NCBI GenBank assembly: GCA_963740395.1 | Contig: CAVUEP010000013.1 | Span: forward strand, 7,290-71,289 | DNA from: an uncultured beta proteobacterium | Lineage (GTDB): Bacteria > Pseudomonadota > Gammaproteobacteria > Burkholderiales > Burkholderiaceae_C | Direction: 5' to 3' | Length of the DNA: 64,000 bases | In this document: one piece after another, positions 1,460 to 19,585 of the stretch | How the letters are laid out: every line of letters starts with the position of its first letter | Numbering within the stretch: the first letter of the stretch is position 1 | Translations under genes and position numbers: made by a program | Notes under the pieces: generated by a model | The model's database searches: none | What the model was told of the DNA's origin: nothing | Seen by the model: only the letters and a program-made list of their open reading frames with translations

Positions 1460-1478
1460 GGGGCGCGATTGTCCGTGA

Positions 1479-3052: not shown

Positions 3053-3093
3053 GGCCCGTTAGCGCCGGCCGGCGCGCGTTGCCGCGCCGCGTC

Positions 3094-3861
3094 TCACTGC
3101 GGGTGCCACTCGAAACAACGCTCGCCGAGCGTGAACACCGCCACCCCCGAGGCCTGGCTCGGCAAGCGAAAGAGCAACTCACCGTCGGGGGCGACGACAC
3201 AGCTGCCCCCACCTTCGACGCTCTCTTCCGGCCGATTGAGTGCGTTGGGCCAGTTGGTTTGCACGACATGCGCCCGGGTCGCGACTGCGAGCCGCTGGAT
3301 GTCGCGCACATACTCGGGTGGATCGGTCCTCGGCGTGTCGGGATCCTGGCGCAGCGCACCCGGTACGAAGATCAGGTCGACGGCCTGCGCTTCGAGTTGG
3401 CCACTTACCAAGTCGAGGTCGCCAACTTCCCGGCAGATGACGGCGGAGCAGCGCAGCCCGTGCAAGATGCCGACCGGCCGGGCGGACCCGCGGGCAAAGA
3501 AGGTCGCCTCCGCTGCGGTCAGACCCTGCTTGGCGATGACGGCGCAAGTACTACCCCGTTCGTCGATCAGCAGATGCGAGTTGTACTTGGCGCCGTCATC
3601 GTCGAAGGTCGGCGCGCCCACCGCAATGCCCAGCGAGAGCTCGGCGCAGTGGGCCTGGAGCTCCTGAACTGCGGGCAGGACCCGCTCGGGGACGGCTTCC
3701 ACCCCGATCTTCTTGTGAAAACCCGTGACGGCCAGTTCCGAGAAGCCGCAAAGACGCGCCTCGCGCGTGCGCGCCAGCGACATCGCGCGGCGGATTGCAG
3801 CCACGTTCTCCGGCGTCGTCCAGTGCATCGCGATTTGAGCGATGGCCACGCGGACCGTCAC
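3094..3861 (-). CDS. Carbon-nitrogen hydrolase (nitrilase superfamily) protein
   Basis: This is the C-terminal 255 aa of the composite 645-aa track ORF, starting VTVRVAIAQIAMHWT. It shows FSELAVTG and the catalytic-Cys region GLRCSAVICRE. The GTG start overlaps the upstream stop as GTGA. Confidence 0.7.
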   Translation of the reverse strand: MTVRVAIAQIAMHWTTPENVAAIRRAMSLARTREARLCGFSELAVTGFHKKIGVEAVPERVLPAVQELQAHCAELSLGIAVGAPTFDDDGAKYNSHLLIDERGSTCAVIAKQGLTAAEATFFARGSARPVGILHGLRCSAVICREVGDLDLVSGQLEAQAVDLIFVPGALRQDPDTPRTDPPEYVRDIQRLAVATRAHVVQTNWPNALNRPEESVEGGGSCVVAPDGELLFRLPSQASGVAVFTLGERCFEWHPQ

Positions 3862-4674
3862 GGTGGCGTGCGTGCCTGTCTTGACACGGGCGCCGTGCGG
3901 TAGTGGTAGGCGTAGCCGTCGCTGAAACCCAACTGGCGATAGAGGGCGCGCGCGGCATGGTTGTCGCCCTCGACCTGCAGGTAGGCGCTGCGCGCGCCTT
4001 CGGCCCGCGCCTGCAGCAGCAGCCGGGTGCACAGGCGGCGGCCCAGGCCCGCGCCGCGTGATGTCGGTGCCGTGAACACGTCGTAGAGCCCGACCAGATC
4101 CGCCTCGCGCGCGAACCTGGCCGCAGGCGAGCAAGGCACCATCGGACTCGCGGCGGATCGCCAGCGCCTGGAACGGCACGGGCGACAGCTCGAGACGCTG
4201 CGCATGGGCCTGGCGCTGCGCCAGCGGCGAACCGCGCATCTGGCCGACGGCCTGGGCAAAGGCGCTGTGGCCCAGCGATTGCCAGACCAGGTCGGATGGC
4301 AGCGGTTCGTCGGCCAGCGCATCGAGCGTCGCGCGCAGCATCACGCGCGTGTCGTCGAGGCGCGGCCACTGCAGCGCATGGAGTTGCTGGTCGAGGTCAG
4401 TCGGCTGGCTGAAGGGCGTGATGCGCACCACCATCGGTAGTTGCGCCTCGGCAAACACCGCCTGCGCCTGCGCCAGCTTGTCCACCAGGGGCAAGCGCCC
4501 CGGCGCAACCGCGTTGACGCAGCGCGCGCGCTTGGCCTTGCCGGGCGAGAAGCGGATCAGCCAGCCGTCGAGCCAGCGTTGTTGCGGTGGCGCACTGGCG
4601 TTGAGGCCGGCGTCCTCGGCGCGTGACAGCAGCAGCGGGTCGAAGGCGGCAGCGGCAGGTGGGTTGCGGGTCAC
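3858..4674 (-). pseudogene. GNAT family N-acetyltransferase interrupted by a +1 frameshift near 4116
   Basis: The N-terminal part (WLDGWLIRFSPGKAKRARCVNAV ... ALLACGQ) lies in the frame of track ORF 3094..5031. The C-terminal acetyl-CoA part (FAREADLVGLYDVFTAPTSRGAGLGRRL ... ARALYRQLGF) lies in the frame of ORF 3858..4322. Total length is 817 nt, which is 3n+1. The GTG start overlaps the parA stop as GTGA. Confidence 0.65.
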
Positions 4675-5444
4675 GCCAGGACCTTGACGCGATCGACCAT
4701 CTCGCGCGCGAACTCGACGTAGGCCACCGCCCCCTTGGACGTCGGGTCGAAGGTCACGCCGGCCTGGCCGTAGCTCGGCGCCTCGGCCAGGCGCACGTTG
4801 CGCGGGATCACGGCCTTGAACACCTTGTCGCCGAAGTGCGCCTCGAGCTGCGAGCTGACCTGCTGCTGCAAGGTGATGCGCGGGTCGAACATCACGCGCA
4901 GCAGGCCGATGATCTGCAGGTCGGGGTTGAGGTTGGCATGCACCTGCTTGATGGTGTTGACCAGGTCCGACAGCCCCTCGAGCGCGAAGTACTCGCACTG
5001 CATCGGCACGATCACGCCCTGTGCGCTGCACAACCCGTTGAGGGTGAGCAGGCTCAGGCTGGGCGGGCAGTCGATGAGGACGAAGTCATACGCGTCGCCC
5101 GCGTCGGCCAGCGCATCGCGTAGGCGCCGGTCGCGCCGTTCCAGGCCGACCAGCTCGACCTCGGCGCCCGAGAGTTCGCGGTTCGCGCCGAGCACGTCGT
5201 AGCCGCCCTTCTCGCTGGCCTGTCGCGCCTCGGCAATGCTGGCCGAACCGAGCAGCACGTCATAGGTGCTGAGCGCAAGCTGGCGCTTGTCGATGCCCGA
5301 GCCCATCGTCGCGTTGCCCTGCGGGTCGAGGTCGACCACCAGCACGCGCTGGCCGACGCGGGCCAGCCCGGCGGCGAGGTTGACCGTGGTGGTGGTCTTG
5401 CCGACCCCGCCCTTTTGGTTGGCGATGCAGAAGATGCGCGTCAT
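4671..5444 (-). CDS. parA: Chromosome partitioning ATPase ParA (Soj-like)
   Basis: The start is MTRIFCIANQKGGVGKTTTTVNLAAGLA, with the deviant Walker A. I chose the ATG 12 codons inside the track ORF. Confidence 0.9.
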   Translation of the reverse strand: MTRIFCIANQKGGVGKTTTTVNLAAGLARVGQRVLVVDLDPQGNATMGSGIDKRQLALSTYDVLLGSASIAEARQASEKGGYDVLGANRELSGAEVELVGLERRDRRLRDALADAGDAYDFVLIDCPPSLSLLTLNGLCSAQGVIVPMQCEYFALEGLSDLVNTIKQVHANLNPDLQIIGLLRVMFDPRITLQQQVSSQLEAHFGDKVFKAVIPRNVRLAEAPSYGQAGVTFDPTSKGAVAYVEFAREMVDRVKVLA

Positions 5445-5536
5445 GTCCGTCCCGAATGCCGCCCCACGGGTGAACCGCACGCCGCGGAGCCCACGAGCGC
5501 AGCGAGCTTTGGGGGCTCCATGGGCTCAGTTTCGCA

Positions 5537-6151
5537 TCAATCGCGGACCAGGCGCCAACCGAAGCCGATCAGGAAAACACCCGCCAGCCGCTCGAGCCAG
5601 CGCGCGGCCGCGCGGTGCGCCCGCACCTTGGCGGCCACCGCGTTGGCAAAGGCACACAGGCTCAGGCAGTACAGCGCCGTGATGACCGCGATCGTCACGG
5701 CCATGGCGGCGAACGTCGGCAGGCCGCGGTGCGTGGCCGGGTCGATGAAGAGCGGAAAGAAAGCCATGTAGAAGACGATCGCCTTCGGGTTCAGCAGCGT
5801 GATGAAGAAGGCCTGGCGCGCATAGTGGCGCGGCTGAATGCGCACCGGCGAGGCACTGCCGTCGCCACGCGAGAACAACAGGCGCAGCCCGATCCAGGCC
5901 AGGTAGGCCGCCCCCGCGACCTGCACCGCCTTGAAAGCCAGAGGGTAGGCCGCGAGCAAGGCCGCGACGCCGGCCACGGCCAGCCACAGCAGGACCTGGT
6001 CACCGACGATCACGCCCAGCGTGGCCGCCGCGCCGGCGCGAAAGCCGCCCTTGCCGGTCGAGGTCAGCAGCGCGAACGTGCCTGGCCCAGGCAGCGCGAG
6101 GAAGATCAGGATGGCGGCGCAGAAGGCCGTGAAGTCGGTGATGCCGAACAT
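5537..6151 (-). CDS. LysE/RhtB family amino-acid exporter
   Basis: 204-aa polytopic membrane ORF. The N-terminal LALPGPGTFALL motif is typical of the LysE family. Confidence 0.8.
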   Translation of the reverse strand: MFGITDFTAFCAAILIFLALPGPGTFALLTSTGKGGFRAGAAATLGVIVGDQVLLWLAVAGVAALLAAYPLAFKAVQVAGAAYLAWIGLRLLFSRGDGSASPVRIQPRHYARQAFFITLLNPKAIVFYMAFFPLFIDPATHRGLPTFAAMAVTIAVITALYCLSLCAFANAVAAKVRAHRAAARWLERLAGVFLIGFGWRLVRD

Positions 6152-6221
6152 GTTGACGCGAGGTTACCGGATCACCGCGCTGCGCGGTCGCTGCGGGCGG
6201 CCTGAAGGACAATCACGCCCC

Positions 6222-7310
6222 ATGAACCCAGAGATTCCTGGCACCCCCACCAGCGCGGAGCCCGACGCAGCGCCCGCCGTGGCTGGCGCCGATGCGCCGC
6301 AGGCTGCCACGACCGAAGCCTCCCCCTTGCCGTCGGGTGACGCCCCCGCGCCCGACGCGGTGCCCGACGATTTGCGCGAGCTGCCACCCGATGCGCCCTC
6401 TGAGGCGACACCCGCTACCCCGGTGGAGGCCGGCGAGAGCGCCGTCGCGCCTGCAGCCGCCGCCGAAGCAGGCAAACCGGGGCTGACGCCGGCTGCCTGC
6501 GCCACCCGCTTGGCCGAGTTGTTCCCCGCGTTGTTCATTGCGCAGGGTGCGCCCGGGCCGGCCAAGCCGATCAAGCTGCGCATCCACGCCGACATCCAGG
6601 CGCGCGCGCCGGGCGTCTTCAGCAAGCGCGTGCTGGGGCTTTTCTTCAGCCGCTACACGACGACGAACGCCTACCTGAAGGCGCTGGCCGCGGCGCCGCA
6701 CCGGTTTGACCTCGACGGCGAGCCCGCGGGCGAGATTGCCGCCGAGCACCGCCAGGCCGCGACCGAGGAACTGGCGCGCCGCCATGCCCTGGCCGCGCAG
6801 CGGCGTGCGGCGCAGCGCCCTCCTGCGCGACGCGAGGCACAGGCACCTGAAGGCGCATCAGCGCCAGGCGAGCGGCGCGAGCCGCGCCCCGCGGGTCAAC
6901 GCGATCCAGGCCAGGACGCCCGCCTCGCCGAGCGTGCGGCCCGGCCACAGCGCCCCCCGCAAGCGCCGCGCATGCGCGACGACCGGCAGCGGCCCGAGCG
7001 TGCAACTGGCGCACGGCCGCCTCGCAGTGGCGAGCAAACAGCGCCGCACCGCCGCGCCGAGCGTGCAACGCCAGTGCGCGACACCGCCCCCCCTGCCGCA
7101 GCCCTGCCCACGGATCCGGCACAGCGCGAACGCGCGATGCTGCTGCGCAGCTTCGAGTCCAGCCCCTTGAGCAAGGCCAATTTCTGCGCCCTCAAAGGCC
7201 TGAGCGAGGCGACGCTGGATGCCGCGCTCGAGCAGGCCCAGGCGGAGCGGGGTGGGCACGACGCAACGTCCCATGCGCCGCCGCCTCAACGACGCAGCGG
7301 CAGACGCTAG
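6222..7310 (+). CDS. ProQ/FinO domain RNA-binding protein with Ala/Pro-rich N-terminal and Arg-rich C-terminal extensions
   Basis: The internal ATG (aa 68 of the track ORF) gives MNPEIPG. The core is LAELFPALF...PIKLRIHADIQARAPGVFSKRVLGLFFSRYTTTNAYLKAL, the ProQ/FinO fold signature. Confidence 0.7.
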   Translation: MNPEIPGTPTSAEPDAAPAVAGADAPQAATTEASPLPSGDAPAPDAVPDDLRELPPDAPSEATPATPVEAGESAVAPAAAAEAGKPGLTPAACATRLAELFPALFIAQGAPGPAKPIKLRIHADIQARAPGVFSKRVLGLFFSRYTTTNAYLKALAAAPHRFDLDGEPAGEIAAEHRQAATEELARRHALAAQRRAAQRPPARREAQAPEGASAPGERREPRPAGQRDPGQDARLAERAARPQRPPQAPRMRDDRQRPERATGARPPRSGEQTAPHRRAERATPVRDTAPPAAALPTDPAQRERAMLLRSFESSPLSKANFCALKGLSEATLDAALEQAQAERGGHDATSHAPPPQRRSGRR

Positions 7311-7362
7311 GCGCCGAGCCTGGTTCCAGCGCATTGCCACACGCCTGTCGCAACCGAACGGG

Positions 7363-8760
7363 TCAAGGCGTCACGCCGGTCGGACAGTCCGCCCAGGCCC
7401 GGGCATGCAGCGCCACGCGGCAGGCGCTTTCGTAGCGGATACCTCCTACCAGAATCTCTCGCTTGCTGATGGTCGTGTTCAGGCAGACACCCAGCCAGTC
7501 GATCGCCACCGAGGCTTCATTGGGCAGCCCGTCTTCCCAGCCGTTGATCGCGGTAACCGCCCCTGCGAGCACGACGACCTCCATAGTGTTCAAGGCGCAC
7601 TGCGGATTGACGCGAACGCTCCTCGGTAGCTGACCGGCTCGGGCCGGATTCGACGTCGAACGCGCATTCACGGCCAGCGCTTGTTCGAAGCGCGGGCCCG
7701 GAAACCAGCGTGACTCGGGCACCTCAACCCGCTCGCGTGCCGCGACGTACTGCGCCTGCACCGCTGGGGTCCTTCTGCCGTCTGCGGCGACCACGGTCAC
7801 CGAGGCCGCATGATCGACCGCACCGCGGATGTCAGCAGGCATGGTCAGCTCGATGTGCGTCATGGTCCATGCCGCGAACGGTGGCTTGAGCTTGCCGCCA
7901 GGAAACTGCCCGATGATCTCGACCGCACCAGGGCGCTCCCCCAGGCACAGGCCGTCAAGCGTCACCGTCTTGCCCGGCCTCAGCGGACCGGACACCTCAC
8001 TGAGCGTCGGCGGTCCCTTGTCGAGACACAGGAGCGCCCGCGCATTCGGCACAGATCCTTTCGAGATCGCGTCCAACCGCAGGGGCGGTTTGATGGATGC
8101 CAACTCCCCGACGCGTGCCTGCGGCGGCGCGGCGACGCCAAGGCGGCTCGCCGGCTCGTTCGACGCCACCTGCGGCATCCGCCGCGACAGCGGTACGCGG
8201 CCCGTATTGGCCTGCGCCAATACGGCAGACTTGCGGGTGCCGGACTTGATGGTCTTGGGTGGGCCGGCGAGCTTCGCAAGTTCGGCCAGGATCTCCTGCT
8301 TGATCTCTCCCGCAGGCACCGGTTTGCCGCCAACAATGATGATCGCGCGATCGTCCAGTTGCAGCAGGTCGTTTGGCGCTGGCGCCTGCGCAGCAGACGG
8401 CGGTATCGTCGGAGGTCGCTCCGTAAGTGTGGCGGGTGTGTCGCGTCTCACAGGCGTGGTCGGTACCTTCGGCGGCAGCGGTTGCGGGTTCAGCGCGCGG
8501 CGATCGAGCGGACTGGCCGAAGACTTCGGCGGCAGCGGTTGCGGATTCAGCGCGCGACGATCGAGCGGACTGGCCGAAGACTTCGGCGGCAGCGGTTGCG
8601 GATTCAGCGCACGACGCTCGAGCGGACTCGCCAAAGACTTCGGCGGCAGTGGTTGCGGATTCAGCGCACGTTGGTCGGCTGGGCTGACTGGCGCCTGCGC
8701 GCTGGCTGCGGCAATGGCCAGCGCGGCAATGATGCCTACGATGACGGGGCTCGGATTCAT
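7363..8760 (-). CDS. Secreted protein with four tandem 19-aa Pro-rich repeats and an IPT/TIG-like C-terminal region
   Basis: The start is at aa 52 of the track ORF: MNPSPVIVGIIAALAIAAASAQA, a signal peptide. The repeats read RALNPQPLPPKS(L/S)ASPL(E/D)R. I recognised no enzymatic motif. Confidence 0.5.
   Translation of the reverse strand: MNPSPVIVGIIAALAIAAASAQAPVSPADQRALNPQPLPPKSLASPLERRALNPQPLPPKSSASPLDRRALNPQPLPPKSSASPLDRRALNPQPLPPKVPTTPVRRDTPATLTERPPTIPPSAAQAPAPNDLLQLDDRAIIIVGGKPVPAGEIKQEILAELAKLAGPPKTIKSGTRKSAVLAQANTGRVPLSRRMPQVASNEPASRLGVAAPPQARVGELASIKPPLRLDAISKGSVPNARALLCLDKGPPTLSEVSGPLRPGKTVTLDGLCLGERPGAVEIIGQFPGGKLKPPFAAWTMTHIELTMPADIRGAVDHAASVTVVAADGRRTPAVQAQYVAARERVEVPESRWFPGPRFEQALAVNARSTSNPARAGQLPRSVRVNPQCALNTMEVVVLAGAVTAINGWEDGLPNEASVAIDWLGVCLNTTISKREILVGGIRYESACRVALHARAWADCPTGVTP
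8467..8670 (-). repeat. About 3.6 copies of a 57-bp in-frame tandem repeat inside the 7363..8760 CDS
   Basis: Plus-strand unit: cttcggcggcagcggttgcggattcagcgcgcgacgatcgagcggactggccgaaga. Copies start near 8467, 8524 and 8581, with a partial copy at 8638, and are nearly identical. Confidence 0.85.
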
Positions 8761-8933
8761 TGCGTTTCCTTCGGCGTAGGTAGACGAGAAGTGGCCGTCG
8801 CGCGTGGACCTCTGATCGCAATATGCGTGGACAGCCTCACCGTGCCGGCTTGAAGGGCAACAGGGTTGCCTTGCACAAGGCACGGCGTCATCGCACTCTC
8901 GGCAGACGCGCATGCCGCCGGCCCTGACAGCGG

Positions 8934-9533
8934 CTACAGGCGATTGGCCGCCGCACGGGCAAGTTCTTCGAGCGCCTTGAGCGCCTCGGCTCTGTCGCGC
9001 TGCGACAACTGACTCGAGAACAACCGCACCTGGCGCTGTCCCACCTGAACCACGACCTGTGCCACGTCGTTCAGGATCCCGCGCGCCTCGTCCTTGCGTT
9101 CGACGATCGCCATGGCGCGATCCCCGACGCCGCTGAGCGGCTCGAAGCGCACTGCCTGCTTCGCACTCGGCCGCATCGGGTCGATAGCGCCGTCAACCAT
9201 GCCGCGCGACTCGTCCGCCCAGGACGCCAGTTCGTGGTTCGAGTACTGCACGTAGAACGTGCCGCCAGGATGACCCCGAACGCAGGTCACGATGCCATGC
9301 TTTTCAAGGTTGCGGTCGAGCTGGCCGGGCTTGGCCTGCGCGAACACCTTGCGCACCTGCGCGTCAGAGACCAACGTGCAAGGGTTGCTTATGTCGCCCT
9401 TGCCGGCCTGGGCCACTGCAGTCGGCGCCACCGCGGGCTGCGAGGTCGAAGTCGGCGCCTCTTGCTTCGAGCACGCGGCCGCAATGAACGCCGTGACCAG
9501 TGCGGCGAAGAGATGAAGGCGAATCGAATCCAT
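8934..9533 (-). CDS. Hypothetical lipoprotein
   Basis: The start is at aa 131 of the track ORF: MDSIRLHLFAALVTAFIAAACSK, a lipobox of type IAAAC. 199 aa with no recognisable domain. Confidence 0.55.
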   Translation of the reverse strand: MDSIRLHLFAALVTAFIAAACSKQEAPTSTSQPAVAPTAVAQAGKGDISNPCTLVSDAQVRKVFAQAKPGQLDRNLEKHGIVTCVRGHPGGTFYVQYSNHELASWADESRGMVDGAIDPMRPSAKQAVRFEPLSGVGDRAMAIVERKDEARGILNDVAQVVVQVGQRQVRLFSSQLSQRDRAEALKALEELARAAANRL

Positions 9534-9601
9534 TTGAATCTCCAGATGGGCTGACTCCTTGGGCCTGTGCGGCAACCCCGCTCGCACCGTGTGCCGTCGG
9601 T

Positions 9602-11218
9602 TCATTGCTTGGGGCGCAAAGACGACGGCGCCGTCGTTGCGGCGTTCGACCATGTGCGTACCGGCATCTCGGCAGCGCTTGGCGTGCGCACACGATCCAT
9701 GACACGCTGCTCGGGTGATGCGCCCGGCGCGCCTGCCACGGCAAATGCGATCCATGCACCCGGCTCCGCCTGGACAGGCACCATTGCGCGCGCGCGCACC
9801 CGCCACTCGCCGGCTACGGCAGTCATCTGCCCCGGCGTTCCCGGTGCATGGCCCCCCCAGCCGGTATAGCCGACACCCTCGATGGCTGCGGCGCCCACGG
9901 GAACGCTGGTGACGAACACCCACGCGCCCGCTGGGTTCCGGCGCTGGAACTGGAGCTCGTACGAAGTCACGGCACTGCCCCCGGGCGGCGCAACGCGAAT
10001 CTTCATTGCCGTCTGCGGCGCGTGTGTGCTGCCGGCCCTCGGCTCGACGATGCTGGGGGCCCCGATGACCGCTGATTGACCTGTGCCAGCGACATTCGCG
10101 GCCACGGCCGCGGGCGCTCGCACCGTTGCAGGAGGGCTCGGCGCTGTGAAGGCGGGCTCCTGGCTTGCACGGGAGTGCCCAGAAGATTTGGTTGGCGCCT
10201 TGAATGCACGCTCTGGCGTTGCGCTCGCCTGTGCAGCGCTCCTGCCCTGAACCGCAGCGAGCACCTCCACAGCACAGGTCGGTCCGGCATCATTAACGGC
10301 GCAGACGCGGAAGGCATGCGGTCGGCGCGGATCGAGCGGCGCCGACTTGAACTGGAATGCAAGGCGGGTCTTGCCGGCCTGTGCGCCCTTCGGACCGGGC
10401 AGTGATCCTTCGACAAGCCATGGGCGACCGGGCCCGGGCGGGCTCTGGCGCTCGACCGTGTAGGAGTCGACCGGCCTTGATTGCGACTGGTCCGGTGTGT
10501 TCCACTCGATCAGGATCGGTGTGAGTTCCGCATCCAGTTTCGCCGGCGCGCGCGCGGCCACATCCAGAGGCGCTCGCGGCGGCGTCAACGAGGCCGGCGT
10601 GCCGCATATCAGGCCGACCTTCTCCAGCCACCAGCCCGCATGGCCGTGGATGCCGACGGCCACCAGGCCCGGCGGGCATGTTTGCGATTCGCGTTTTTGG
10701 GAGCCGCCCGGAAAGATCGGGGCCTCGAACCTCGCGTCTGGATAGTCGCCGCGGCCACTCTGCCCAGCGCCAGCCGCGCCGCAGAAGATCTCGATCGCGT
10801 TGACGGCGGGGTTCCCACTGGTACCAGGTGACACTTCCGAGACCACGGTCACGCCCAGGACGATCGGCCTGACTTGCGTGCAGTTCAGGCGCCCTACATT
10901 CATTCCGCGTGCACTGCCCCCGGCGGTCGGGACAGCGACTGCCTGGCCGACGCGGCCGGCGCCGAGTGCGGTCGCGCACAGGGGCCAGAGCGAGTTCACG
11001 TCATCGCCCGAGCGCAGGCCGAAGCCGACCACCTGCTGCTCTGCGGCGCAGCGCGCGGTGAACGGGGCTCCCTTGCCTGCCAATCCGAGTGCGGGCAGCA
11101 CGCTGTCCGCAGACACGGATCCCAGCGCCGTGCCGGCGAGTGCAAACACCAGGCTCACCCTGCCGCGCACCGCGTGACCCGATACTTTCTGGCCGACACG
11201 CTGACGGTGGCGCGCCAA
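9602..11218 (-). CDS. Secreted hypothetical protein with two fibronectin-III-like beta modules
   Basis: An N-terminal hydrophobic signal-like stretch (VSLVFALAGTALGSVSA) is present. FN3-like segments include DSYTVERQ...FRVCAVNDAG and TSYELQFQRRN...WRVRARA. The start codon is uncertain. Confidence 0.45.
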   Translation of the reverse strand: MARHRQRVGQKVSGHAVRGRVSLVFALAGTALGSVSADSVLPALGLAGKGAPFTARCAAEQQVVGFGLRSGDDVNSLWPLCATALGAGRVGQAVAVPTAGGSARGMNVGRLNCTQVRPIVLGVTVVSEVSPGTSGNPAVNAIEIFCGAAGAGQSGRGDYPDARFEAPIFPGGSQKRESQTCPPGLVAVGIHGHAGWWLEKVGLICGTPASLTPPRAPLDVAARAPAKLDAELTPILIEWNTPDQSQSRPVDSYTVERQSPPGPGRPWLVEGSLPGPKGAQAGKTRLAFQFKSAPLDPRRPHAFRVCAVNDAGPTCAVEVLAAVQGRSAAQASATPERAFKAPTKSSGHSRASQEPAFTAPSPPATVRAPAAVAANVAGTGQSAVIGAPSIVEPRAGSTHAPQTAMKIRVAPPGGSAVTSYELQFQRRNPAGAWVFVTSVPVGAAAIEGVGYTGWGGHAPGTPGQMTAVAGEWRVRARAMVPVQAEPGAWIAFAVAGAPGASPEQRVMDRVRTPSAAEMPVRTWSNAATTAPSSLRPKQ

Positions 11219-11303
11219 TGCATTTGCGACGGGGAACTCGGCGACAGCGTCGTTTTCGGTGCGGTGCGTGATTCACTTGCTCCTGTTCAGGGCCTTGTTG
11301 CGC

Positions 11304-12065
11304 TCACGGTTGGAATCGCTTCGACAGCTCCAGCACTGCGTCGTTGATCGCCGCGCGCAACGCCGAGTCGACGCCCTCGCGCCGCGTCTGCGACGCCTGC
11401 ACGTCCGGGGTGAATGTCGAACTACGGCCCCGTGGCGCCATGACGTTGCTGATCAGGTTGCCGATGCCGCTGATGCTGGATGCGTCGCCCTTCATCGACC
11501 TGCTGATCGTGATCGCGTCGACGATGTCGCCGCTGCCGGCATCGACGACGCGCACGTCGATTGCGATCGAGTCACGGTTGGTGGCACCACCGACTTGCAT
11601 GCCCGCGATTCCCACGCTTGCCGAGCGCTGCACCTCGCCGACATTGGCTTCCGATACGGTGCCTTCGAATATGTACTGCGCCGGCCGTAGTCGTCGATTG
11701 GCGACGTTTGCGGTCGCCAGACCCTGGGCACCGATTTGCTTCTCGTGGATCACGCCCTCGTTGAGGCGTGCGCGCTCAACGACGCGGAACTGCCCGCTCT
11801 GAACCAGGGCGGTCTTGAACATGTCGGTCGCGGCACGGCCATTGACTTCGTTCACACTCGAGCGGAACTCGTAGATCGTGACGGCCACGCGCTCGCCCTG
11901 CTTGCGCGGCAGCTTCTTCAGTGTCTGCGTCGTTGGTGCCGCGTCGGCGCGTGGCGCCTCGTATGGCATCCCCGCACAACCTGCCAGGCCCAGCGCCGAC
12001 AGCGCCGCCGCAAGCACACCGTCCCGGACTACGGCCAGGTCCAGCAGACTATGTTTCGCTCTCAT
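11304..12065 (-). CDS. CsgG/HfaB family outer-membrane secretion-channel lipoprotein
   Basis: The start is at aa 124 of the track ORF: MRAKHSLL...LGLAGCAG, a lipobox. By eye it aligns to E. coli CsgG blocks: VAVTIYEFRS..., TALVQSGQFRVVERARLNEGVIHEKQI, YIFEGTVSE...IAIDVRVVDAGSGDIVDAITISRSM. Confidence 0.75.
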   Translation of the reverse strand: MRAKHSLLDLAVVRDGVLAAALSALGLAGCAGMPYEAPRADAAPTTQTLKKLPRKQGERVAVTIYEFRSSVNEVNGRAATDMFKTALVQSGQFRVVERARLNEGVIHEKQIGAQGLATANVANRRLRPAQYIFEGTVSEANVGEVQRSASVGIAGMQVGGATNRDSIAIDVRVVDAGSGDIVDAITISRSMKGDASSISGIGNLISNVMAPRGRSSTFTPDVQASQTRREGVDSALRAAINDAVLELSKRFQP

Positions 12066-12132
12066 CTCGGCCTCCAGTGGACGCAGGCAACGGTTGTCGA
12101 CGCGATGTGGACGCTGACGGCTGCGCGCATCG

Positions 12133-12480
12133 TCACCGCCCGTCCGCGATCCCTGGCGCAGAGGCATCCGGCACGACCAGCGTCTGCCGCGCCGTCCGGA
12201 TCCAGATGTAGCCCGGCGGTTCCACGTCGACATCGAGGTAGAGGACTTCGCGGCGTCGCAGCATTTCCAGCAATGTCGACAGCGCCGAGGGCCGTAGAAA
12301 GCCGCGCGCGCCCTCACTGCCGTGCAGCCGAGGCGGGGGTACCGCTGCCGCTTCGGCGACGAACCCGAACTGGGCCAAGCGGCGACCCGCGCCATCCCAC
12401 AGCTCGAGCCGGCCGGGCTGGCCCGTGCCGCCATCGATCGAGTACTGGAAATGCGCGATGCGCTGGGTGCTGACCGCCAT
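12133..12480 (-). CDS. Hypothetical 115-aa protein between the regulator and the CsgG-like gene
   Basis: This is the C-terminal part of track ORF 12133..12993, from MAVSTQRIAHFQYSIDGG. Codon bias is plausible, but there is no signal peptide and no recognised domain. Confidence 0.35.
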   Translation of the reverse strand: MAVSTQRIAHFQYSIDGGTGQPGRLELWDGAGRRLAQFGFVAEAAAVPPPRLHGSEGARGFLRPSALSTLLEMLRRREVLYLDVDVEPPGYIWIRTARQTLVVPDASAPGIADGR

Positions 12481-12545
12481 GCGCACAGCTTCCGCCCGGC
12501 GATCTGACACCGGACTCACAGAACGCTGAAATGGCCCGCCGGCGC

Positions 12546-15500
12546 TCAGCCGGCCAGGTGAAGCGCCTCGCGCATCAGTGTTTCGAGGGCTGCACCGGGC
12601 TTGCGGCCGATCAGGATCGACAGCACCTCGCGGCATCGGCGGAACACCTGCACCGCCTCCGCGGGTCGATTCTGTTGCAACAGACAGCGCATCAGGCTGC
12701 AGTAGGCGTCCTCGGCCAGGTTGTCGTGCTCCAAGGCCAACCGGTAGACGCGTTCGGCATCGGCCCAGCAGCTCAACGCTTCGAGACGCTGGCCCGCCCG
12801 ACGCATGGCACGCAGAAACTGACTGCTGCACCGATCGGCAATGCCAACCGCCCACGGTTCGGCTGGATTGGCACCGGCAAACCCACCGCGGTAAGTACTG
12901 CAAAGTGCGGCGCTGAGTTCTGAGACCTGGTCCGCGTCGAGGTGATCCAGCGTCTCGCTGTCGATGCGTTGCACCAGCGCGGCCAACGCCCACACATCGG
13001 CCCAGACCAGCTGTCGATCGAAGCCGAGTTGGCCCTCGCGCAGCACGAGCGCATCGTGGCGTCCGAGCAACTTGCGAAGCCGGTAGAGCGTCGTATCGAA
13101 CGCCGCGCGCGCCGCGTCGCCATCGGCCTCAGGCCATAAGCTGTCGGCCAGCAGACTCACGTCAACGGCGATCGATCCCGAGCCGACAAGCAGCTTGACC
13201 AGGTCCATCGGTTTGCGGTTGCCGCGCTGCGCAACGGGCAGCGGCGCATCGTTGATCAGTATCTCGAAATCGCCGAGGGCCCGCACCCGAACCGGCCACG
13301 GCCACTCAGCCTGCGAGTTGTCTGGCGCCGCCAGTGCACGGCGAGAAATCGCCTCGCGCACGAACTCGGTTTCGATGCCGCGCGCAAGCGCTTCGGCGCA
13401 CAGTTGCGCGGCAAGGCGCGGCAAATGGTTCGCAAAGGCCCACCAGTTGTGCTCACGGCTGCGCGTCAGCACGCGCGCGAGCAAGGCCATGTCGAGTGGA
13501 TGTCGCCGGCGGATCTGCTCGGCGAGCGGCGCCATGTCGGCGAGTATCTCCAGAAAATCGCGTCGCATCGCCTGCAGCGGCGCCGCGTGCGCGAGTGCGA
13601 CGCTGCGCGCCTCGTTCTCGCGACCGAGCGCGATCAGCACCTGCACACGCTGCAAATCGAAGATCCAGCGCTCTGCTGGTGGGAACTCACCGTCGCGCGC
13701 TGCCTCCAGCGCGAGATCGGATGCGACCAAGGCCTGCTGTGGCTTGCCGGCCAGCAGCAGCTGCCGCGCTTCGAATTGCAGCAATCCCGCCCGCTGAGTC
13801 GGCAGCCGGGTGTCTGTGACCTCGCGCATGCTGCGCAGGTACTTCTCTGCGGCGGCGATATCTCCGCGCGAGAACATTGACGCGACAAGGTAGCTCAACG
13901 CGGCGTATGCGAGCGCGTCGATCGCGTTGCTGCGTGCGATGTCGACGGCATGTTCGAACAATTGCACCGCGTCGCCCTCCAGCACGCCGTGGCGGCGCAC
14001 GGGCATGCGCGGGGCAACTGCCGCCAGCGCGATGTACCAGCCCGCCAGCGCGCCGGCACTCAATTCGTTGCTCGCCAACCACGGCAGCGACAGATCGACC
14101 GATCGCTCGAGCAGTTCGCGATCACCCCCTCGGGAGGAAAACTCGATCAACGCGATGCCGGCCTCGACAGCATCGTTGGCCTCGATGGACTGGTCGCCGT
14201 TCGGCGCCTCGGTTCCAGCCGCCAGCGTCTCGATGATCGAAGCAACCGCGTCGCGAGCACGGGCATCGTCGGCAGCGAAACTGAACGAAACCTCGTTCGC
14301 GCGCAGCCACACGAACGCAACGCGCAAGCGCTCGGTCGCGGAAGTCGGGCGCAAGCCGAGCGCCATCAGCTCGCTCATGCGTGACTGCCAGAGCTCTCGT
14401 CCGTGAAACACGGACCACCCAGAAATCATGGTGCCGAGCGCGGTCGCGCACGTGACCAGGGCGCGCTCCTTGTCATTGCGCGAAACGAAGCCAACGTAGG
14501 CACGCTCGAAATGAGTCAGTGCCGTTCCAGATGTGCGCCGCGCCATCGCTCGACCAATGACTTCCTGCATCGCGGGCTCGCTGGCAGCAAGCGCGGGCGG
14601 CAAGAGTCGCGCGGCTTGCAACAGCTCACCTTCACGGCGTGCACGCAGCAGCCCCGCGGCCTGCCCGATGCAGCCGTGCATCGCCGACGAGACATCGCCT
14701 GCCCGCACGAACACACTGACTGCGGTCTCCAGATAGCCACAATGCAACGCGAAGTCCGCCACGCGCAATTGCGCTGCGTGTCGCCAGGCGGCGTCACCCA
14801 TCTGGTCGAACACGACGCGTAGCGCGGCCCGGAACAGGTCGTGCAGGCGCCACATGGGCGGCCGCGTTGCCAGCAATGTGATAAACAGATGCCGTCGTTG
14901 CAGATCCCGAATCCACGCTACCGCTTCGGCGTCGTCGCTGAAGGCCGCGCATGCGTCGGCGCCAAACTGCGGCAGCCAGCTCAGCATCGCCAGCAACTCG
15001 CGCTGGCGCAGGGGCAACGGATTCACGAAGCGCAACGCCAGGTATTCAAGCAGGTCGTCGCGCATGGCCTCCGGCGCCTGGCGTGTAGCGACTCCGGTGC
15101 GCCCGAGCAGGACCAGCCCAGCCGCCCAGCCGCCGGTGTCGGCGTACACGGCCGCGAGCGACTCATCGTCCCCCTTGGCGCCTATCAACTCGCGCGCTTC
15201 CTGCGGCGTGAAGGCCAAGCTTGCGCCATCAACAGTGGCAAGGCGTCCGGCAGAAACGAGTTCGAGCCAATCCGTTGGTGGATCACGATGACCCAGCACG
15301 AGCACATGGCTGCCAACGGGAGCCTCCTCGATTGCCTTGCGCAACGCCGTGGCGAAGGCAGAACTCTGGGCGGCCTGGGTATCGTCGAAAACGAGGACGC
15401 TTCCCGTGCGCAGTCGATCCCAAAACACACGAAAGAACGACTGCCAGAAGAGCTCAAGCCGCCCGGCCCACACTTCACCCCAGGCAACAGGCTCGGCGCG

Positions 15501-15860
15501 CGTAGCCCGCCGTCGCGGCCGCGGCGTGAGGGCGGCGGCCAAGTACGACGAGACCACCCCTGGATCGTCATCACCGGCGTCAACGCGATAGAACACCGTA
15601 TTGCCTGGCCGCGTCTGCGTCCACGTCGCTGCAAGCAAGGTCTTGCCGCTGCCTGGCGCCGCGGCCAGCCATAGTCCTGCCGACTCGGCGGCCAAGGAGT
15701 CGAGCATTTGATGGAGCCGCGGGCGCACGACGGCACGCCCAGCGCGTGGCCGCGCCAATTTCGCCAAGGTTGGCACAGTCGCGGTCGCGGCGGCAGGCGC
15801 CATGGACATGGGTTCGACTTCGCGTCCGACGACGCGTGTGAGACGAGGATTAGCCATCAT
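12546..15860 (-). CDS. Large STAND-type regulator: N-terminal P-loop ATPase (MalT-like), helical/TPR middle, C-terminal winged-helix plus BTAD (SARP-like) module
   Basis: Walker A is AAAPGSGKTLLA. The C-terminus reads VRVRALGDFEILINDAPLP...MDLVKLLV...LWPEADGDAARAAFDTTLYRLRKLLG, followed by BTAD-like helices. I placed the start at MMANPRL (aa 108 of the track ORF). The upstream extension runs into the proQ remnant. Alternative starts are 15809 and 15803. Confidence 0.7.
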   Translation of the reverse strand: MMANPRLTRVVGREVEPMSMAPAAATATVPTLAKLARPRAGRAVVRPRLHQMLDSLAAESAGLWLAAAPGSGKTLLAATWTQTRPGNTVFYRVDAGDDDPGVVSSYLAAALTPRPRRRATRAEPVAWGEVWAGRLELFWQSFFRVFWDRLRTGSVLVFDDTQAAQSSAFATALRKAIEEAPVGSHVLVLGHRDPPTDWLELVSAGRLATVDGASLAFTPQEARELIGAKGDDESLAAVYADTGGWAAGLVLLGRTGVATRQAPEAMRDDLLEYLALRFVNPLPLRQRELLAMLSWLPQFGADACAAFSDDAEAVAWIRDLQRRHLFITLLATRPPMWRLHDLFRAALRVVFDQMGDAAWRHAAQLRVADFALHCGYLETAVSVFVRAGDVSSAMHGCIGQAAGLLRARREGELLQAARLLPPALAASEPAMQEVIGRAMARRTSGTALTHFERAYVGFVSRNDKERALVTCATALGTMISGWSVFHGRELWQSRMSELMALGLRPTSATERLRVAFVWLRANEVSFSFAADDARARDAVASIIETLAAGTEAPNGDQSIEANDAVEAGIALIEFSSRGGDRELLERSVDLSLPWLASNELSAGALAGWYIALAAVAPRMPVRRHGVLEGDAVQLFEHAVDIARSNAIDALAYAALSYLVASMFSRGDIAAAEKYLRSMREVTDTRLPTQRAGLLQFEARQLLLAGKPQQALVASDLALEAARDGEFPPAERWIFDLQRVQVLIALGRENEARSVALAHAAPLQAMRRDFLEILADMAPLAEQIRRRHPLDMALLARVLTRSREHNWWAFANHLPRLAAQLCAEALARGIETEFVREAISRRALAAPDNSQAEWPWPVRVRALGDFEILINDAPLPVAQRGNRKPMDLVKLLVGSGSIAVDVSLLADSLWPEADGDAARAAFDTTLYRLRKLLGRHDALVLREGQLGFDRQLVWADVWALAALVQRIDSETLDHLDADQVSELSAALCSTYRGGFAGANPAEPWAVGIADRCSSQFLRAMRRAGQRLEALSCWADAERVYRLALEHDNLAEDAYCSLMRCLLQQNRPAEAVQVFRRCREVLSILIGRKPGAALETLMREALHLAG

Positions 15861-16136
15861 CGGGCAAGAACGGCTCCCTGTCTGCCGAGAACGGGACCAC
15901 AGACCGAGGCGAAGTGGCCAGCCTGCGGCGTCGGTACCTTCGCCATTGTCACGATGGCGCAGCCACTTGGGGGCTTGGTCGTCTCCGTCGAGCGCCCGGG
16001 GCCTTCGGCCGCGGTTGACCACGTAAGCGTCGCGAATCGGAGTGGGGGTTGCCGCCCAATCCCGCGGCAGCAGTCCCGTCAGACGAGGGCGAGAGCGCCG
16101 TCCAGTCTGAGGTCGAACCCAACGCCGGCACAGCAA

Positions 16137-16326
16137 ATGCGCCGGGCCGGCCAAGCCGATCAAGCTGCGCATCCATGCCAAACCCCGGACGCACGCGCCG
16201 GGCGCTTATGCCAGACCCGTACTCAGCCCTCTATTCAGTCGCGACAGGAAGCTGCGCGCCCACTTGACGGCGTTGCCTGCCGCGCTCGAGCAGGCCCAGG
16301 CGGAGCGCCGCGGCAACGGCCGCTAG
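16137..16326 (+). pseudogene. Decayed, internally deleted partial copy of the ProQ/FinO gene at 6222..7310
   Basis: 16142..16175 is identical over 34 nt to 6553..6586, the PIKLRIH coding block. 16278..16307 is identical over 30 nt to 7220..7249, the proQ 3' end. Both are in the same orientation, and the sequence between them is divergent or deleted. Confidence 0.6.
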
Positions 16327-16419
16327 ACTGCATCGGGCGCTCGCATTGCGAGCGTGGTGGTGTGCGCGTCCACGTCGGATGCGCCGACCTGCGAGCTTTC
16401 CAGAAGGAGGGAGTGCACC

Positions 16420-18399
16420 TTGTCCGACTCTGGCCTGTCCGATCTTGACGCGACCCCGCCCTCCAGCCGCGAGCAACTCGCGTTCTCGCTCTATGAGGCG
16501 GCGGAACTCGAACACTGCATCCTCTGCACCTACCTCTACGCCGCGTTCAGCCTCAAGCAAGGCATCGCCGAGGGCTTGACGGCACAAGAGAGCGAGGCGG
16601 TCGCGCGCTGGCGCCGCGTGTTGCTCGGCGTCGCGCTCGAAGAGATGGGCCACGCGGTGGCGGTGTGGAACATCACCAGCGCGCTGGGCTTGTCGCCGCG
16701 CGTCGGGCGCATGAACTTTCCCCTCGATCCCGGGTACCTGCCCGCCGACATCGTGCTCAAGCTGGCGCCCTTCGGCACGGCGTCGCTGCAGCACTTCATT
16801 CATCTTGAGCGGCCGGTGGGGTCCACCGAGCCCGATGGCGAGGGGTTTGCGCCCGTGAATCGCTATCTGCGCGGCGGCGCGGCGGGCGAGTGGTTGACGC
16901 CCACGCCGCTCAACTTCGATACCGTCGGTGACTTCTACGCCATGCTCGCGGCCGAGCTGCAGCGCTTCGTCGCCTCGGTGGGCGAGGCACAGGCGTTTTG
17001 CGGCGACCCGGCGTTGCAGATCTTGCCGACCGAGGTCCCTCTGGAAGACGCGCAGCGTGTCGTTTGCATGAAGAGCGCGGCCGCGGTCTGTGCCGCCATC
17101 GTGGAGCAGGGCGAGGGCGCACCCGACCACATGGAGGGCTCGCACTTCCAGCAGTTCACGGCCATCCGCGATGAGTATGCCCAGCTGTTGGCGCAGAACC
17201 CGGCCTTCGTGCCGGCGCATCCGGCCGCCGTCAACCCGGTCCTGCGCCGACCGCCGCGGCCCGAAGGGCGGGTCTGGCTCGAGGGCCCCGACACGGTGGC
17301 CACGGTCGATCTGGCCAACGCCTGCTACGGCCTGATGCAACGCCTGCTGGCGCATGCCTACCGCGTACCCACGGGCGCGGAAAAGTCGCTCTGCGTTGAC
17401 GTCGCGGTGGGCTTGATGCGTGCCATGACGCCCCTGGGCGAACGCGCCGCGCGCCTGCCCGCAGGGCCGTCGAATCCGCAGCTCAATGCCGGTGTGACGT
17501 TCGCGACACTGCGCGACACCGCCGCGTTGCCCGCGGGGCCTGGCGCGTGGCAATTCTTCAATGAGCGGCTGCGCGACTTTGCAGCGGCCAGCGCAAGAAT
17601 GGCCCAGGGCGGGGACGCCCGCGCGAGTGCCGCGGCACGGGTTCTGGCCGACCTTGCCGCACGGGCCGCCAACGGGGCCGATCTGGTTGCCAGCGCCGCC
17701 ACGGCCCCGCCAGTCGCAGCCAAGGCCAGCCCCATCGCCGCCGCGCCCGCATCGACGACAGTTGCCGGTGTCGAAACCGTCAAAGGCTCCGCGCTGACCT
17801 TGATGTTCGAGGCCAAGCGCTGCATTCACGCGCGCTTTTGCGTGACGGGTGCGCCGAATGTTTTCCTGGGCAACGTCAAAGGCGCGTGGCTGCATCCGGA
17901 TGCGATGGACGCCGAGCGCCTGGCCGACATTGCCCATGCCTGCCCATCGGGCGCCATTCGCTACCGACGCAACGACGGCCGGCCCGACGAAGCGCCGCCG
18001 CCGGTGAACCTGGCGGCCGTGCGGGAGGCCGGACCCTACGCCTTTCGCGGTGAACTGATGCTCGACGGCGCCCCGGCCGGTACGCGCGCGACCCTGTGCC
18101 GCTGCGGCGCGTCGAAGAACAAGCCGTTTTGCGACAACTCGCACCGCAAGATCGACTTCAATGCCAGCGGCGAGCCCCCCAGCGGCCAAACGGCCGCGCT
18201 CGTGGAGCGCAACGGACCCTTGCGGATCGATCCGCAACTCGACGGGCCGCTGCAGGTGCGCGGCAATCTCGAGATCACCAGCGGCACGGGCCGCGTTGTG
18301 GCGCGCGTGAACTCAGCGCGACTGTGCCGCTGCGGCGCCAGCGCCAACAAGCCCTTCTGCGACAACAGCCACGCCCGCATCGGGTTTCGCTCGACCTGA
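16420..18399 (+). CDS. Fusion protein: ferritin-like domain + divergent 4Fe-4S mono-cluster-like segment + two CDGSH iron-sulfur domains
   Basis: The N-terminus is LAFSLYEAAELEHCILCTYLYAAFSLK ... LEEMGHAVAVWN, the ferritin-like family. The middle is KRCIHARFCVTGAPNVF...AHACPSGAIRY. Two C-terminal motifs read CRCGASKNKPFCDNSH and CRCGASANKPFCDNSH. I preferred the TTG start at 16420, 9 nt after AGGAGG. A GTG at 16354 is an alternative. Confidence 0.7.
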   Translation: MSDSGLSDLDATPPSSREQLAFSLYEAAELEHCILCTYLYAAFSLKQGIAEGLTAQESEAVARWRRVLLGVALEEMGHAVAVWNITSALGLSPRVGRMNFPLDPGYLPADIVLKLAPFGTASLQHFIHLERPVGSTEPDGEGFAPVNRYLRGGAAGEWLTPTPLNFDTVGDFYAMLAAELQRFVASVGEAQAFCGDPALQILPTEVPLEDAQRVVCMKSAAAVCAAIVEQGEGAPDHMEGSHFQQFTAIRDEYAQLLAQNPAFVPAHPAAVNPVLRRPPRPEGRVWLEGPDTVATVDLANACYGLMQRLLAHAYRVPTGAEKSLCVDVAVGLMRAMTPLGERAARLPAGPSNPQLNAGVTFATLRDTAALPAGPGAWQFFNERLRDFAAASARMAQGGDARASAAARVLADLAARAANGADLVASAATAPPVAAKASPIAAAPASTTVAGVETVKGSALTLMFEAKRCIHARFCVTGAPNVFLGNVKGAWLHPDAMDAERLADIAHACPSGAIRYRRNDGRPDEAPPPVNLAAVREAGPYAFRGELMLDGAPAGTRATLCRCGASKNKPFCDNSHRKIDFNASGEPPSGQTAALVERNGPLRIDPQLDGPLQVRGNLEITSGTGRVVARVNSARLCRCGASANKPFCDNSHARIGFRST

Positions 18400-18457
18400 T
18401 CCGCCATGGTCTGCCGCTGGCCGCACGCCGAGCCGGCGCGACTATGCGGCCGCGGCG

Positions 18458-19585
18458 CTATGCCGCAATGTAGGTGTACGCCGTGGGCAGCGGCTTGGTC
18501 TCGACGAGGCAGGCCGTCTCGGCCTCGAACGCGCCGCCGTCGCGCAGCGCGGCGATGAGCCGGTCCAGCTTGTCCGGCCCGATGCCCAGGTCGACGATCT
18601 CGCGCGCCGGGGAGACGGCGAACTCGGTGCCGCTCGGCGAAAAGAGCTTGGCCTTCGTGATCGTCGCGCCGCCGGCGCCGGCCCCCATCGCTGTGGCGAC
18701 GAGGCGATCGGCGCTGCCTTCATTGCAGTTCAGCGTGACATTGACCAAGCCGGTCAGCCAGCGCCTCTGCTGTCGCGGCGCTGCGGCGGCGGCGCCGGCG
18801 CGTTGCCGCCATTCGGTGCCCGCCTTCAACTCGTCGATGGCCGCGATGAGCTGGTCCATCGTCGCACTGTGGCGCTGCCGGCCGCGGAATGACTTCGGGT
18901 TGGCCACACCGGCGCTGACCGGGTAGGCGCCGATGAAGCCGCGGCCCGGCAGGTCGAGCCGGCCCGCGTCGATGAGGCTGTCCAGGGTCGTCGCGGTTTC
19001 GTGCGGCTCGACGAGCAGCGAGACGATCTCCTTCTCGGCGGGGATCGCGATGCGCAACAACCCGAGCCGGTCGCGCACGCCGGTGCCGACACCGAAGTTG
19101 ATCGACGGCACGTTCGATCCCGACTCGATCGCGCTGCGGGCCACGCCGTTGCCGTAGTCGCGCTGGACGACGCAGTTGATCAGGGTCAGGGGCGCGAGTC
19201 GCTCCCCCGCCTGTTGCGCGCCATCAGGAACGGTGAGGTGCGCGGCGCAGAAGTCGATGCCCGGCGGGTTGAGGATGTCGACCTCCTCGGCGTAGATCGA
19301 GCCACGCCCGGGCGTGAACAAGTCAAGCGCCCGGGCCCACGCCAGCAACGTGGCGCGGGCCTGCGCCCTGGGCAGGTAGACCTCGAAGACCTCGACCGGA
19401 TCCTCGTCCAGGCGCGTGGTCGGCGGCAGGAACGGCAGCACGGCGCGCTCGCTCAGCGCCACCACGCGGCGCGGGTGCACCTGCGCGAGATCGAAGTGCA
19501 GGCCCTCGAGCGCGGACTGGGCCTGGGCCGACAGGCTCTTGTCGACTTCGCACGTGATCCGGGCCGTCGGCGTCGTCATGGGCAT
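18458..19585 (-). CDS. Triple P-II-like (GlnB-fold) repeat protein, partner of the DUF1538 membrane protein
   Basis: 375 aa. Two segments fit the P-II-like pattern often seen next to DUF1538 genes. They are LINCVVQRDYGNGVARSAIESGS...EKEIVSLLVEP...GRGFIGAYPV and LNCNEGSADRLVATAMGAGAGGATIT...REIVDLGIGPDKLDRLIAAL. A third, weaker N-terminal repeat is present. This is by-eye inference only. Confidence 0.45.
   Translation of the reverse strand: MPMTTPTARITCEVDKSLSAQAQSALEGLHFDLAQVHPRRVVALSERAVLPFLPPTTRLDEDPVEVFEVYLPRAQARATLLAWARALDLFTPGRGSIYAEEVDILNPPGIDFCAAHLTVPDGAQQAGERLAPLTLINCVVQRDYGNGVARSAIESGSNVPSINFGVGTGVRDRLGLLRIAIPAEKEIVSLLVEPHETATTLDSLIDAGRLDLPGRGFIGAYPVSAGVANPKSFRGRQRHSATMDQLIAAIDELKAGTEWRQRAGAAAAAPRQQRRWLTGLVNVTLNCNEGSADRLVATAMGAGAGGATITKAKLFSPSGTEFAVSPAREIVDLGIGPDKLDRLIAALRDGGAFEAETACLVETKPLPTAYTYIAA

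Follow-up and report, generated by a model that had tools for sequence, protein, structure and literature searches.

In the icd gene of Escherichia coli, prophage e14 and phage 21 are both said to insert at the 3' end of a protein-coding housekeeping gene, to supply a substitute end for it and to leave the native end stranded as a pseudogene fragment at the far edge of the element. Here we describe an island of 9,028 nt that has done the same to proQ, the gene for the global RNA chaperone ProQ, in a 64,000-nt stretch of DNA (hereafter the window) from contig C13 of a metagenome-assembled genome (MAG) of an uncultured beta proteobacterium (Burkholderiaceae_C; GenBank assembly GCA_963740395.1, contig CAVUEP010000013.1; 3.3 Mb, 86% complete, 5.8% contamination). 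In contrast to e14 and phage 21, which are phages with their own integrase, the proQ island carries neither a recombinase nor a phage gene; its substitute end comprises just 19 codons, and it contains target-like sequence upstream of the point of crossover.

Other described systems share some of these features. When a non-replicating circle bearing part of a chromosomal gene integrates in the Campbell manner, as a suicide plasmid does, the result is likewise circularly permuted homology and the order intact gene, insert and 5'-truncated copy with no dedicated recombinase. The island differs from this case in being natural, in having a badly decayed homology arm with only about 30 bp able to support exchange, and in that its circle is a presumed one. 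Cis-mobilisable elements (CIMEs), the integrase-less islands flanked by att sites that are known from the ICESt1/ICESt3 family at fda, resemble it in that they lack a recombinase and have direct repeats on both sides at a gene's 3' end; however, no cognate integrative element or integrase is seen in the present genome or at the site in relatives. A gene with a new 3' end, followed by cargo and a displaced older 3' piece, is also the layout of rhs, cdiA and type VI secretion system effector loci, although proQ is no polymorphic toxin gene and its tail is a short, unconserved extension rather than a functional module with an immunity gene. Finally, hotspots that lack integrases and turn over by homologous recombination have been documented (Oliveira et al., PMC5635113), and the variable zone between the conserved LysE-proQ and dnaE2 genes, with its species-specific content and its lack of mobility genes, is of this type. 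The model put forward for such hotspots invokes double crossovers in both flanks and predicts neither a duplicated target nor a fossil, whereas here both junctions lie in one 30-bp site. A literature search on proQ as a target of islands returned nothing relevant. The event is a known kind of gene gain, of which a recombinase-free, tail-swapping variant with a target-derived arm and an available empty site is uncommon.

The empty site and the boundaries of the insert

An earlier note, made from the letters of this DNA alone, had proposed a bounded island in the order intact proQ, cargo and displaced proQ remnant. Two contigs from conspecific strains that lack the island bear this out. The first (L029, a Logan contig of 1665 nt) is 99.3% identical to window positions 5750-7249 and then resumes at 16278-16472; the second (L045/L046, a 440-kb contig from ENA) is 99.0% identical to positions 1-7249 and then collinear with 16278-34942. 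In both, the overlap between the two segments is precisely a single copy of a 30-nt run that stands twice in the window. Since the conspecific contigs join 7249 to 16278 through this single run, the insert spans 7250-16277. In a sister species (L030-L034), whose ferritin-like protein is 84% identical to that of the window, the LysE, proQ, ferritin-like and P-II-like genes likewise follow each other with nothing between them. The order LysE-proQ followed directly by the ferritin-like gene, which the earlier note had suggested looking for in related genomes, is therefore present in L029, L045/L046 and L030-L034. The island is strain-specific and bounded by a perfect 30-bp direct repeat within the last codons of proQ. 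The features on which the following account rests are these:

6222..7310, plus strand: proQ, intact but chimeric, 362 amino acids (Pfam ProQ, E=9.5e-25)
6553..6586, plus strand: 34-nt run, copy within the intact gene, FinO-domain codons GPAKPIKLRIH; 34/34 identical to 16142-16175
7220..7249, plus strand: left copy of the 30-nt direct repeat, TGCCGCGCTCGAGCAGGCCCAGGCGGAGCG, at the left island junction; 30/30 identical to 16278-16307
7250..16277, no strand assigned: inserted island, 9028 nt; absent from L029, L045/L046 and L030-L034
16138..16277, plus strand: island-borne proQ fossil, with the 34-nt run, about 110 nt of decayed FinO-domain sequence and the junction of a 531-nt deletion
16142..16175, plus strand: 34-nt run, copy within the fossil, identical to 6553-6586; contig L047 terminates within it
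16278..16307, plus strand: 30-nt direct repeat, right copy, identical to 7220-7249; right junction of the island
16308..16326, plus strand: displaced native proQ 3' end (RGNGR and stop), identical to the end of the functional gene in L029 and L045

Divergence in both flanks stays at the ordinary strain level (0-1.8%) as far as the repeat itself, and a long donor tract is thus not visible. Within the repeat, both window copies read CTC at a site that reads CTG or TTG in both empty-site contigs and in all outgroups, which fits either a descent of both copies from one molecule or a homogenisation between them.

The position of the island is also supported by a separate assembly. An island-bearing Logan contig from a different run (L047) covers 8581-16171 at 99.97% identity and ends inside the 34-nt run, as expected of an assembly graph with k=31. 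Because L047 reproduces the junction between island and fossil independently, this junction is not an assembly artefact.

The proQ-derived fragment and the exchanged ProQ tail

The remnant at the right edge of the island was detected as two repeats of proQ, one of 144 nt (6553-6696 versus 16142-16285, 73% identity) and one of 51 nt (7210-7260 versus 16268-16318, 82%). Local alignment of 16080-16360 with the gene gave a score of 120, compared with 39 +/- 6 and a maximum of 64.5 among 200 shuffles; this confirms the decayed proQ fragment that the earlier note had described, together with its two perfect runs of 34/34 nt (6553-6586 = 16142-16175) and 30/30 nt (7220-7249 = 16278-16307). In the 110 nt past the 34-nt run, 71 positions match, against a null of 34 +/- 5 derived from in-frame coding segments. 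The two homologous stretches are offset in register by 531 nt (177 codons), and the fragment is therefore an in-frame internal deletion. Its homology to proQ begins at 16138, a 1-nt deletion precedes 16142, and its reading frame is open to a TAG codon at 16324-16326, with no ATG, GTG or TTG start. Its island-borne part (16138-16277) corresponds to proQ 6548-6696 and 7204-7219.

The two parts of this composite differ in age. Past the 34-nt run, the fossil is about 35% diverged from the gene, with differences spread evenly over the codon positions (13/14/12) and conserved residues lost; the RYTxxxxYL motif, for example, reads RDRKLRAHL, the tyrosine codons having gone. Functional orthologues across the genus are 83-92% identical over the same segment. 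In view of the even spread of the differences and the loss of conserved residues, the large part of the fragment is neutrally decayed pseudogene sequence; its G+C content is slightly lower as well. Derivation of the decayed part from a distant functional FinO homologue was ruled out on the same grounds, namely the even codon-position differences and the lost tyrosine codons. The 67 nt that begin with the 30-nt run, by contrast, agree with L029 and L045 in 66/67 positions and with the outgroup L042 in 54/67 (81%); until recently, this stretch belonged to a working gene. As these adjoining 67 nt show only functional-level divergence, the fossil is much older than the insertion, and since 16138-16277 is absent from the empty site, it came with the island. 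The notion, advanced in the earlier note, that acquisition duplicated part of the target gene does not hold in this form: only the 30-bp run is duplicated, while the larger fragment is about 35% diverged and missing from the empty site. At variable sites, the fossil is nearest to proQ of the host clade (71/110 to the resident gene, L029, L045 and L030; 53-68 to others), and it shares a few states with related lineages.

The leftmost part of the fossil, the perfect 34-nt run, stands out from the 110 nt next to it (Fisher's exact test, p=4e-6). That it is simply the most conserved stretch of the gene is true of functional orthologues, but such conservation cannot protect a pseudogene. Our best guess is gene conversion, or earlier exchanges that were confined to patches of minimal length. 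Remnants of proQ were also sought 3' of proQ in 16 other loci, where only weak chance matches were found.

At the other edge of the island, the insertion has changed the end of the working gene. As far as 7249, the resident proQ shares 99.0-99.3% identity with the empty-site contigs; beyond this point it is unrelated to them. ProQ of the empty-site strains ends in AQAERRGNGR, which is exactly the end of the fragment at 16326, and the tails in the sister species and outgroups are similarly short (GGSGR, AGNSR, RGPGR). The window ProQ, by contrast, ends in AQAERGGHDATSHAPPPQRRSGRR; its final 19 codons lie within the insert, whose left end (7250-7310) encodes the new in-frame tail GGHDATSHAPPPQRRSGRR (19 codons and a stop). 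The working proQ is therefore a chimera with an imported tail. Positions 6222-7249 are native, and the displaced native sequence consists only of 16308-16326. In other lineages, ProQ has long tails similar to this new one, such as AERGGASNTPAQRSGGRR and AERGALPNAPAQRRSGR.

Across the group, ProQ tails occur in two forms, a short one (ER-R/G-x-x-R or simply ERR) and a long one (G..S/T..P.QRSGGRR), and among the homologues compared (P0002-P0121) conservation of ProQ ends exactly after the AQAER motif.

Possible routes of the island into proQ

The homology between insert and target is circularly permuted. The right end of the insert (16138-16277) matches proQ to the left of the 30-nt run, whereas its left end (7250-7310) is homologous to the long ProQ tails that other lineages have to the right of this run; if the insert is closed into a ring, its ends combine into one in-frame, internally deleted proQ pseudogene. 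Such a permutation arises when a circle recombines with the chromosome by one reciprocal crossover. We therefore consider it somewhat more probable than all contrary accounts taken together that the island entered by one Campbell-type crossover in the 30-bp stretch, most likely through host homologous recombination. On this account, the island would have been a circle carrying an old, internally deleted proQ pseudogene, and one reciprocal exchange between the chromosomal proQ and this pseudogene would have taken place inside the 30-bp run. The crossover would split the island's pseudogene, so that the working proQ now closes with the long tail and stop codon of this pseudogene, while its decayed front was joined to the native last six codons, which are left stranded beside the ferritin-like gene. 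The host homologous-recombination machinery would perform the exchange at the one remaining stretch that was long enough; for E. coli, the shortest perfect identity that allows efficient RecA-type exchange is reportedly about 30 bp. The broken proQ copy of the island thus probably guided its insertion.

Host recombination is favoured because recombinases are lacking and the flanks are normally diverged up to the repeat. No member of the integrase, resolvase or transposase families was found among the open reading frames of the island, and neither PF00589 nor PF00239 is matched anywhere on the contig of the window. The assembly contains two tyrosine-recombinase loci (PF00589), both on other contigs, and no PF00239 match. 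The repeat has 30 bp, and the ends of the island are derived from the target and are not inverted repeats, as those of a transposon with its transposase would be; of the traits of an integrative element, the identical end repeats with a single copy at the empty site and the restored 3' end are present, and a recombinase of its own is not.

Several observations weigh against entry by one host-mediated crossover. Identical 30-bp repeats at both ends are equally a signature of site-specific integration. The perfect 34-nt run lies away from the point of crossover, and one event does not account for it. In the proQ-ferritin intergenic region, 38 nt beyond the right-hand junction of the island, nine mismatches to both empty-site contigs are clustered in 52 nt (16345-16396). 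They could represent a short donor tract, which would agree with import through a double crossover, but repair synthesis or rapid drift could have produced them as well. A recA gene (PF00154) above the cut-off was not found in the 86%-complete assembly, and it presumably lies in the part of the genome that was not assembled. Furthermore, neither DNA of the genus nor the 400 sampled genomes of the order, JGI metagenomes or PLSDB yielded another copy of the island together with its fossil, so that the supposed circulation of the island is unsupported. The circular intermediate, the dependence on RecA and a cycling of the island through proQ within the clade are inferred parts of the model, while the boundaries of the insert, the single 30-bp site of the empty-site strains, the chimeric tail, the composite make-up of the remnant, the higher age of the fossil and the lack of recombinase genes are shown directly. 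A bolder extension of this model, which we regard as quite improbable, takes the fossil to be a "homing arm" still in use: an island free of recombinases would go in and out of proQ again and again within this clade, by means of host recombination alone; the exchanges would keep the 34-nt and 30-nt patches, both close to the minimal length for RecA-type exchange, identical to the live gene while the rest decays, and each visit would swap the ProQ tail.

Other explanations put the origin of the occupied allele elsewhere. The whole occupied haplotype may have been imported from a conspecific donor by a double crossover in the flanking genes, on the left in proQ and on the right in the intergenic region or the ferritin gene. 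The nine mismatches just mentioned, the 10-15% diverged patch at 18.5-20 kb in a background of about 1%, the variability of the proQ-dnaE2 interval over the genus (differing in content, and 2-12 kb against 29 kb here) and the published precedent (PMC5635113) all speak for such an import. Yet both junctions fall in the same 30 nt, proQ to the left of 7220 is 99% identical to the empty-site strains and shows no donor tract, and the searches of the genus, the order and metagenomes yielded no island-bearing donor. We consider this import unlikely, though not negligibly so; it would explain the spread of the island and not its origin, and it is partly compatible with the single crossover favoured above. 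A site-specific recombinase acting in trans, supplied by an element that targets the 3' end of proQ, could have integrated the island as an integrase-less, cis-mobilisable element, with the 30-bp run as att core and the tail as the replacement 3' end. Perfect 30-bp end repeats, their single copy at the empty site and a gene end provided by the element are what this would produce, and the run bears terminal inverted pentamers (CGCTC...GAGCG). Nevertheless, this explanation seems rather improbable, given that the island has no tyrosine or serine recombinase, that none was found near proQ in five relatives, that just two tyrosine loci exist assembly-wide, that homology to the target reaches about 140 nt upstream of the core, which is unexpected for an attP arm, and that no other insertion at the end of proQ with this 30-bp repeat was found among the 17 loci examined.

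Two further explanations dispense with an insertion at this site. In one, an old partial duplication of proQ (from 6548 to the stop) arose in situ together with the cargo and decayed in place, gene conversion held the 34-nt and 30-nt runs identical, and the "empty" strains have recently reverted, recombination between the 30-nt repeats having removed the island. A deletion between the repeats would indeed regenerate exactly the observed empty site, and the closeness of the fossil to proQ of the host clade (the 71/110 matches given above) agrees with such an origin. We nonetheless judge it very unlikely: over the native tail and the first part of the intergenic region, 54/67 positions match L042, where about 55% would be expected after comparable decay, both empty-site contigs keep the ancestral CTG while both window copies have CTC, and the long tail is foreign to this clade. 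In the other, the position of the island is a chimeric join in a MAG, a class of genome in which incompleteness and contamination (86% and 5.8% here) make such joins conceivable. This can be practically dismissed, since L047, from another run, reproduces 8581-16171 including the island-fossil junction, the new tail is in frame and plausible as a ProQ tail, and the 30-nt repeat is shorter than the usual assembly k-mer.

Cargo, neighbouring genes and the proQ-dnaE2 interval

All genes of the island lie on the minus strand, convergent with proQ. The earlier note had listed them as secreted proteins, lipoproteins, a CsgG-like gene and a STAND regulator, and this description holds by domain and signal matches:

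7363..8760, minus strand: secreted protein with a signal peptide and four to five 19-aa repeats RRALNPQPLPPKSSASPLD
8934..9533, minus strand: DUF3558-like lipoprotein (lipobox IAAAC; weak DUF3558 match, E=8e-6, below cut-off)
9602..11218, minus strand: fn3-like protein, start codon uncertain (weak fn3 match, E=8e-5, below cut-off)
11304..12065, minus strand: CsgG-like outer-membrane lipoprotein, 253 amino acids (Pfam CsgG, E=9e-20; lipobox LAGC)
12546..15860, minus strand: STAND regulator with MalT-like P-loop ATPase, TPR and C-terminal BTAD domains (domain matches)

Judged from these matches, the cargo is likely to be an envelope or export module under its own regulator. The product of the first gene has no match in Pfam or NCBIfam, and no homologue of it was found in 400 sampled genomes of the order, nor was any match to a cargo protein of 516 amino acids. 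The 19-aa repeats of the first gene stand as four to five tandem 57-nt units at 8410-8694, where L047 breaks. For the gene at 9602-11218, the annotation of L047 gives 556 amino acids. Homologues of the CsgG-like protein are at most 71% identical in the protein search, and related CsgG-centred clusters with other regulators occur in other Burkholderiales in unrelated contexts without proQ. At the DNA level, the sole match of the island in the genus was one of 70-71% to the CsgG-like gene; neither the fossil junction nor the new tail was found when JGI metagenomes were scanned for exact patterns, and no PLSDB plasmid matched the island. The G+C content of the window ranges from 66 to 74%, with 66-68% in the island and 70-74% in its flanks.

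The intact ProQ contains a FinO-type RNA-binding domain (PF04352, residues 92-196) and matches the NCBIfam ProQ model with E=2e-15, under the equivalog cut-off. No proQ-like sequence besides the intact gene and the fragment was found in the 3.3-Mb assembly. Its neighbourhood comprises:

5537..6151, minus strand: LysE-type exporter gene (Pfam LysE, E=4e-35), the conserved left neighbour of proQ
16327..16419, plus strand: native proQ-ferritin intergenic region, collinear with L029 and L045
16420..18399, plus strand: ferritin-like / Fer4_19 / CDGSH fusion gene, directly 3' of proQ in L029-L034 and L045

LysE adjoins proQ in relatives of the genus (83-93% amino acid identity) and is divergently oriented to it. 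The intergenic region carries a GCTCGC-N3-GCGAGC hairpin and the ribosome-binding site of the ferritin-like gene; promoter or terminator consensus sequences were not found in 15800-16450, and known RNA families were not found in 5-20 kb of the window. In this clade, the ferritin-like fusion gene is the native right neighbour of proQ. It is itself an insertion beside proQ, being missing there in the close relatives L042 and L044; it occurs in 2 of 24 genus genomes, and the named homologues that come next, at 62-70%, belong to Dyella and Rhodanobacter.

A block consisting of the CN-hydrolase/acetyltransferase, LysE and proQ genes is conserved in all 24 genus relatives searched. The distance from proQ to the convergent dnaE2 block is 2-12 kb in these relatives, with differing content, and 29 kb in the window (7311-36615). 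The locus is found in four nested states: proQ followed by a choline-kinase-like gene; proQ, a P-II-like gene, DUF1538 and the choline-kinase-like gene; the same order with the ferritin-like gene inserted; and, in the window, the ferritin-like arrangement with the 9-kb island in addition. With conserved core genes on both sides and variable content free of mobility genes in between, the proQ-dnaE2 interval conforms to the type of integrase-free hotspot that Oliveira et al. (PMC5635113) described. Between 18500 and 20000, across the P-II-like gene and into the beginning of the DUF1538 gene, the window differs from the 440-kb conspecific contig by 10-15%, compared with about 1% elsewhere; this patch looks like a separate recombination import. 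In L045 (13074-16211), the P-II-like and DUF1538 genes are called in pieces, with 37-47 gap openings relative to the window, which suggests indel errors of a long-read assembly.

The earlier note had drawn a parallel to a second island at the dnaE2 side of this interval and had suggested a common mechanism of acquisition. The type of mechanism may be shared, but the two do not represent one event. The dnaE2-side repeat is 49 nt long with 88% identity (36610-36658 versus 28546-28594) and has no extended fossil, and the dnaE2-side island (window 28546-34942; L046 12300-20759) is 97% identical in the strain without the proQ-side island. Because this conspecific strain, represented by the 440-kb contig, has only the dnaE2-side island, the two islands stem from separate events, and the dnaE2-side island is older or was independently fixed.

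In other respects, the proQ island is an ordinary strain-specific gene acquisition that is unusually cleanly documented. With the occupied and the empty allele both in hand, homology-guided insertion without an integrase becomes directly testable. The proQ-dnaE2 interval is marked as a hotspot of gene gain in the genus. The insertion rewrites the C-terminal tail of a global RNA chaperone and parts proQ from the ferritin-like gene downstream of it, and pairs of strains with and without the island could reveal whether either change matters to the organism.

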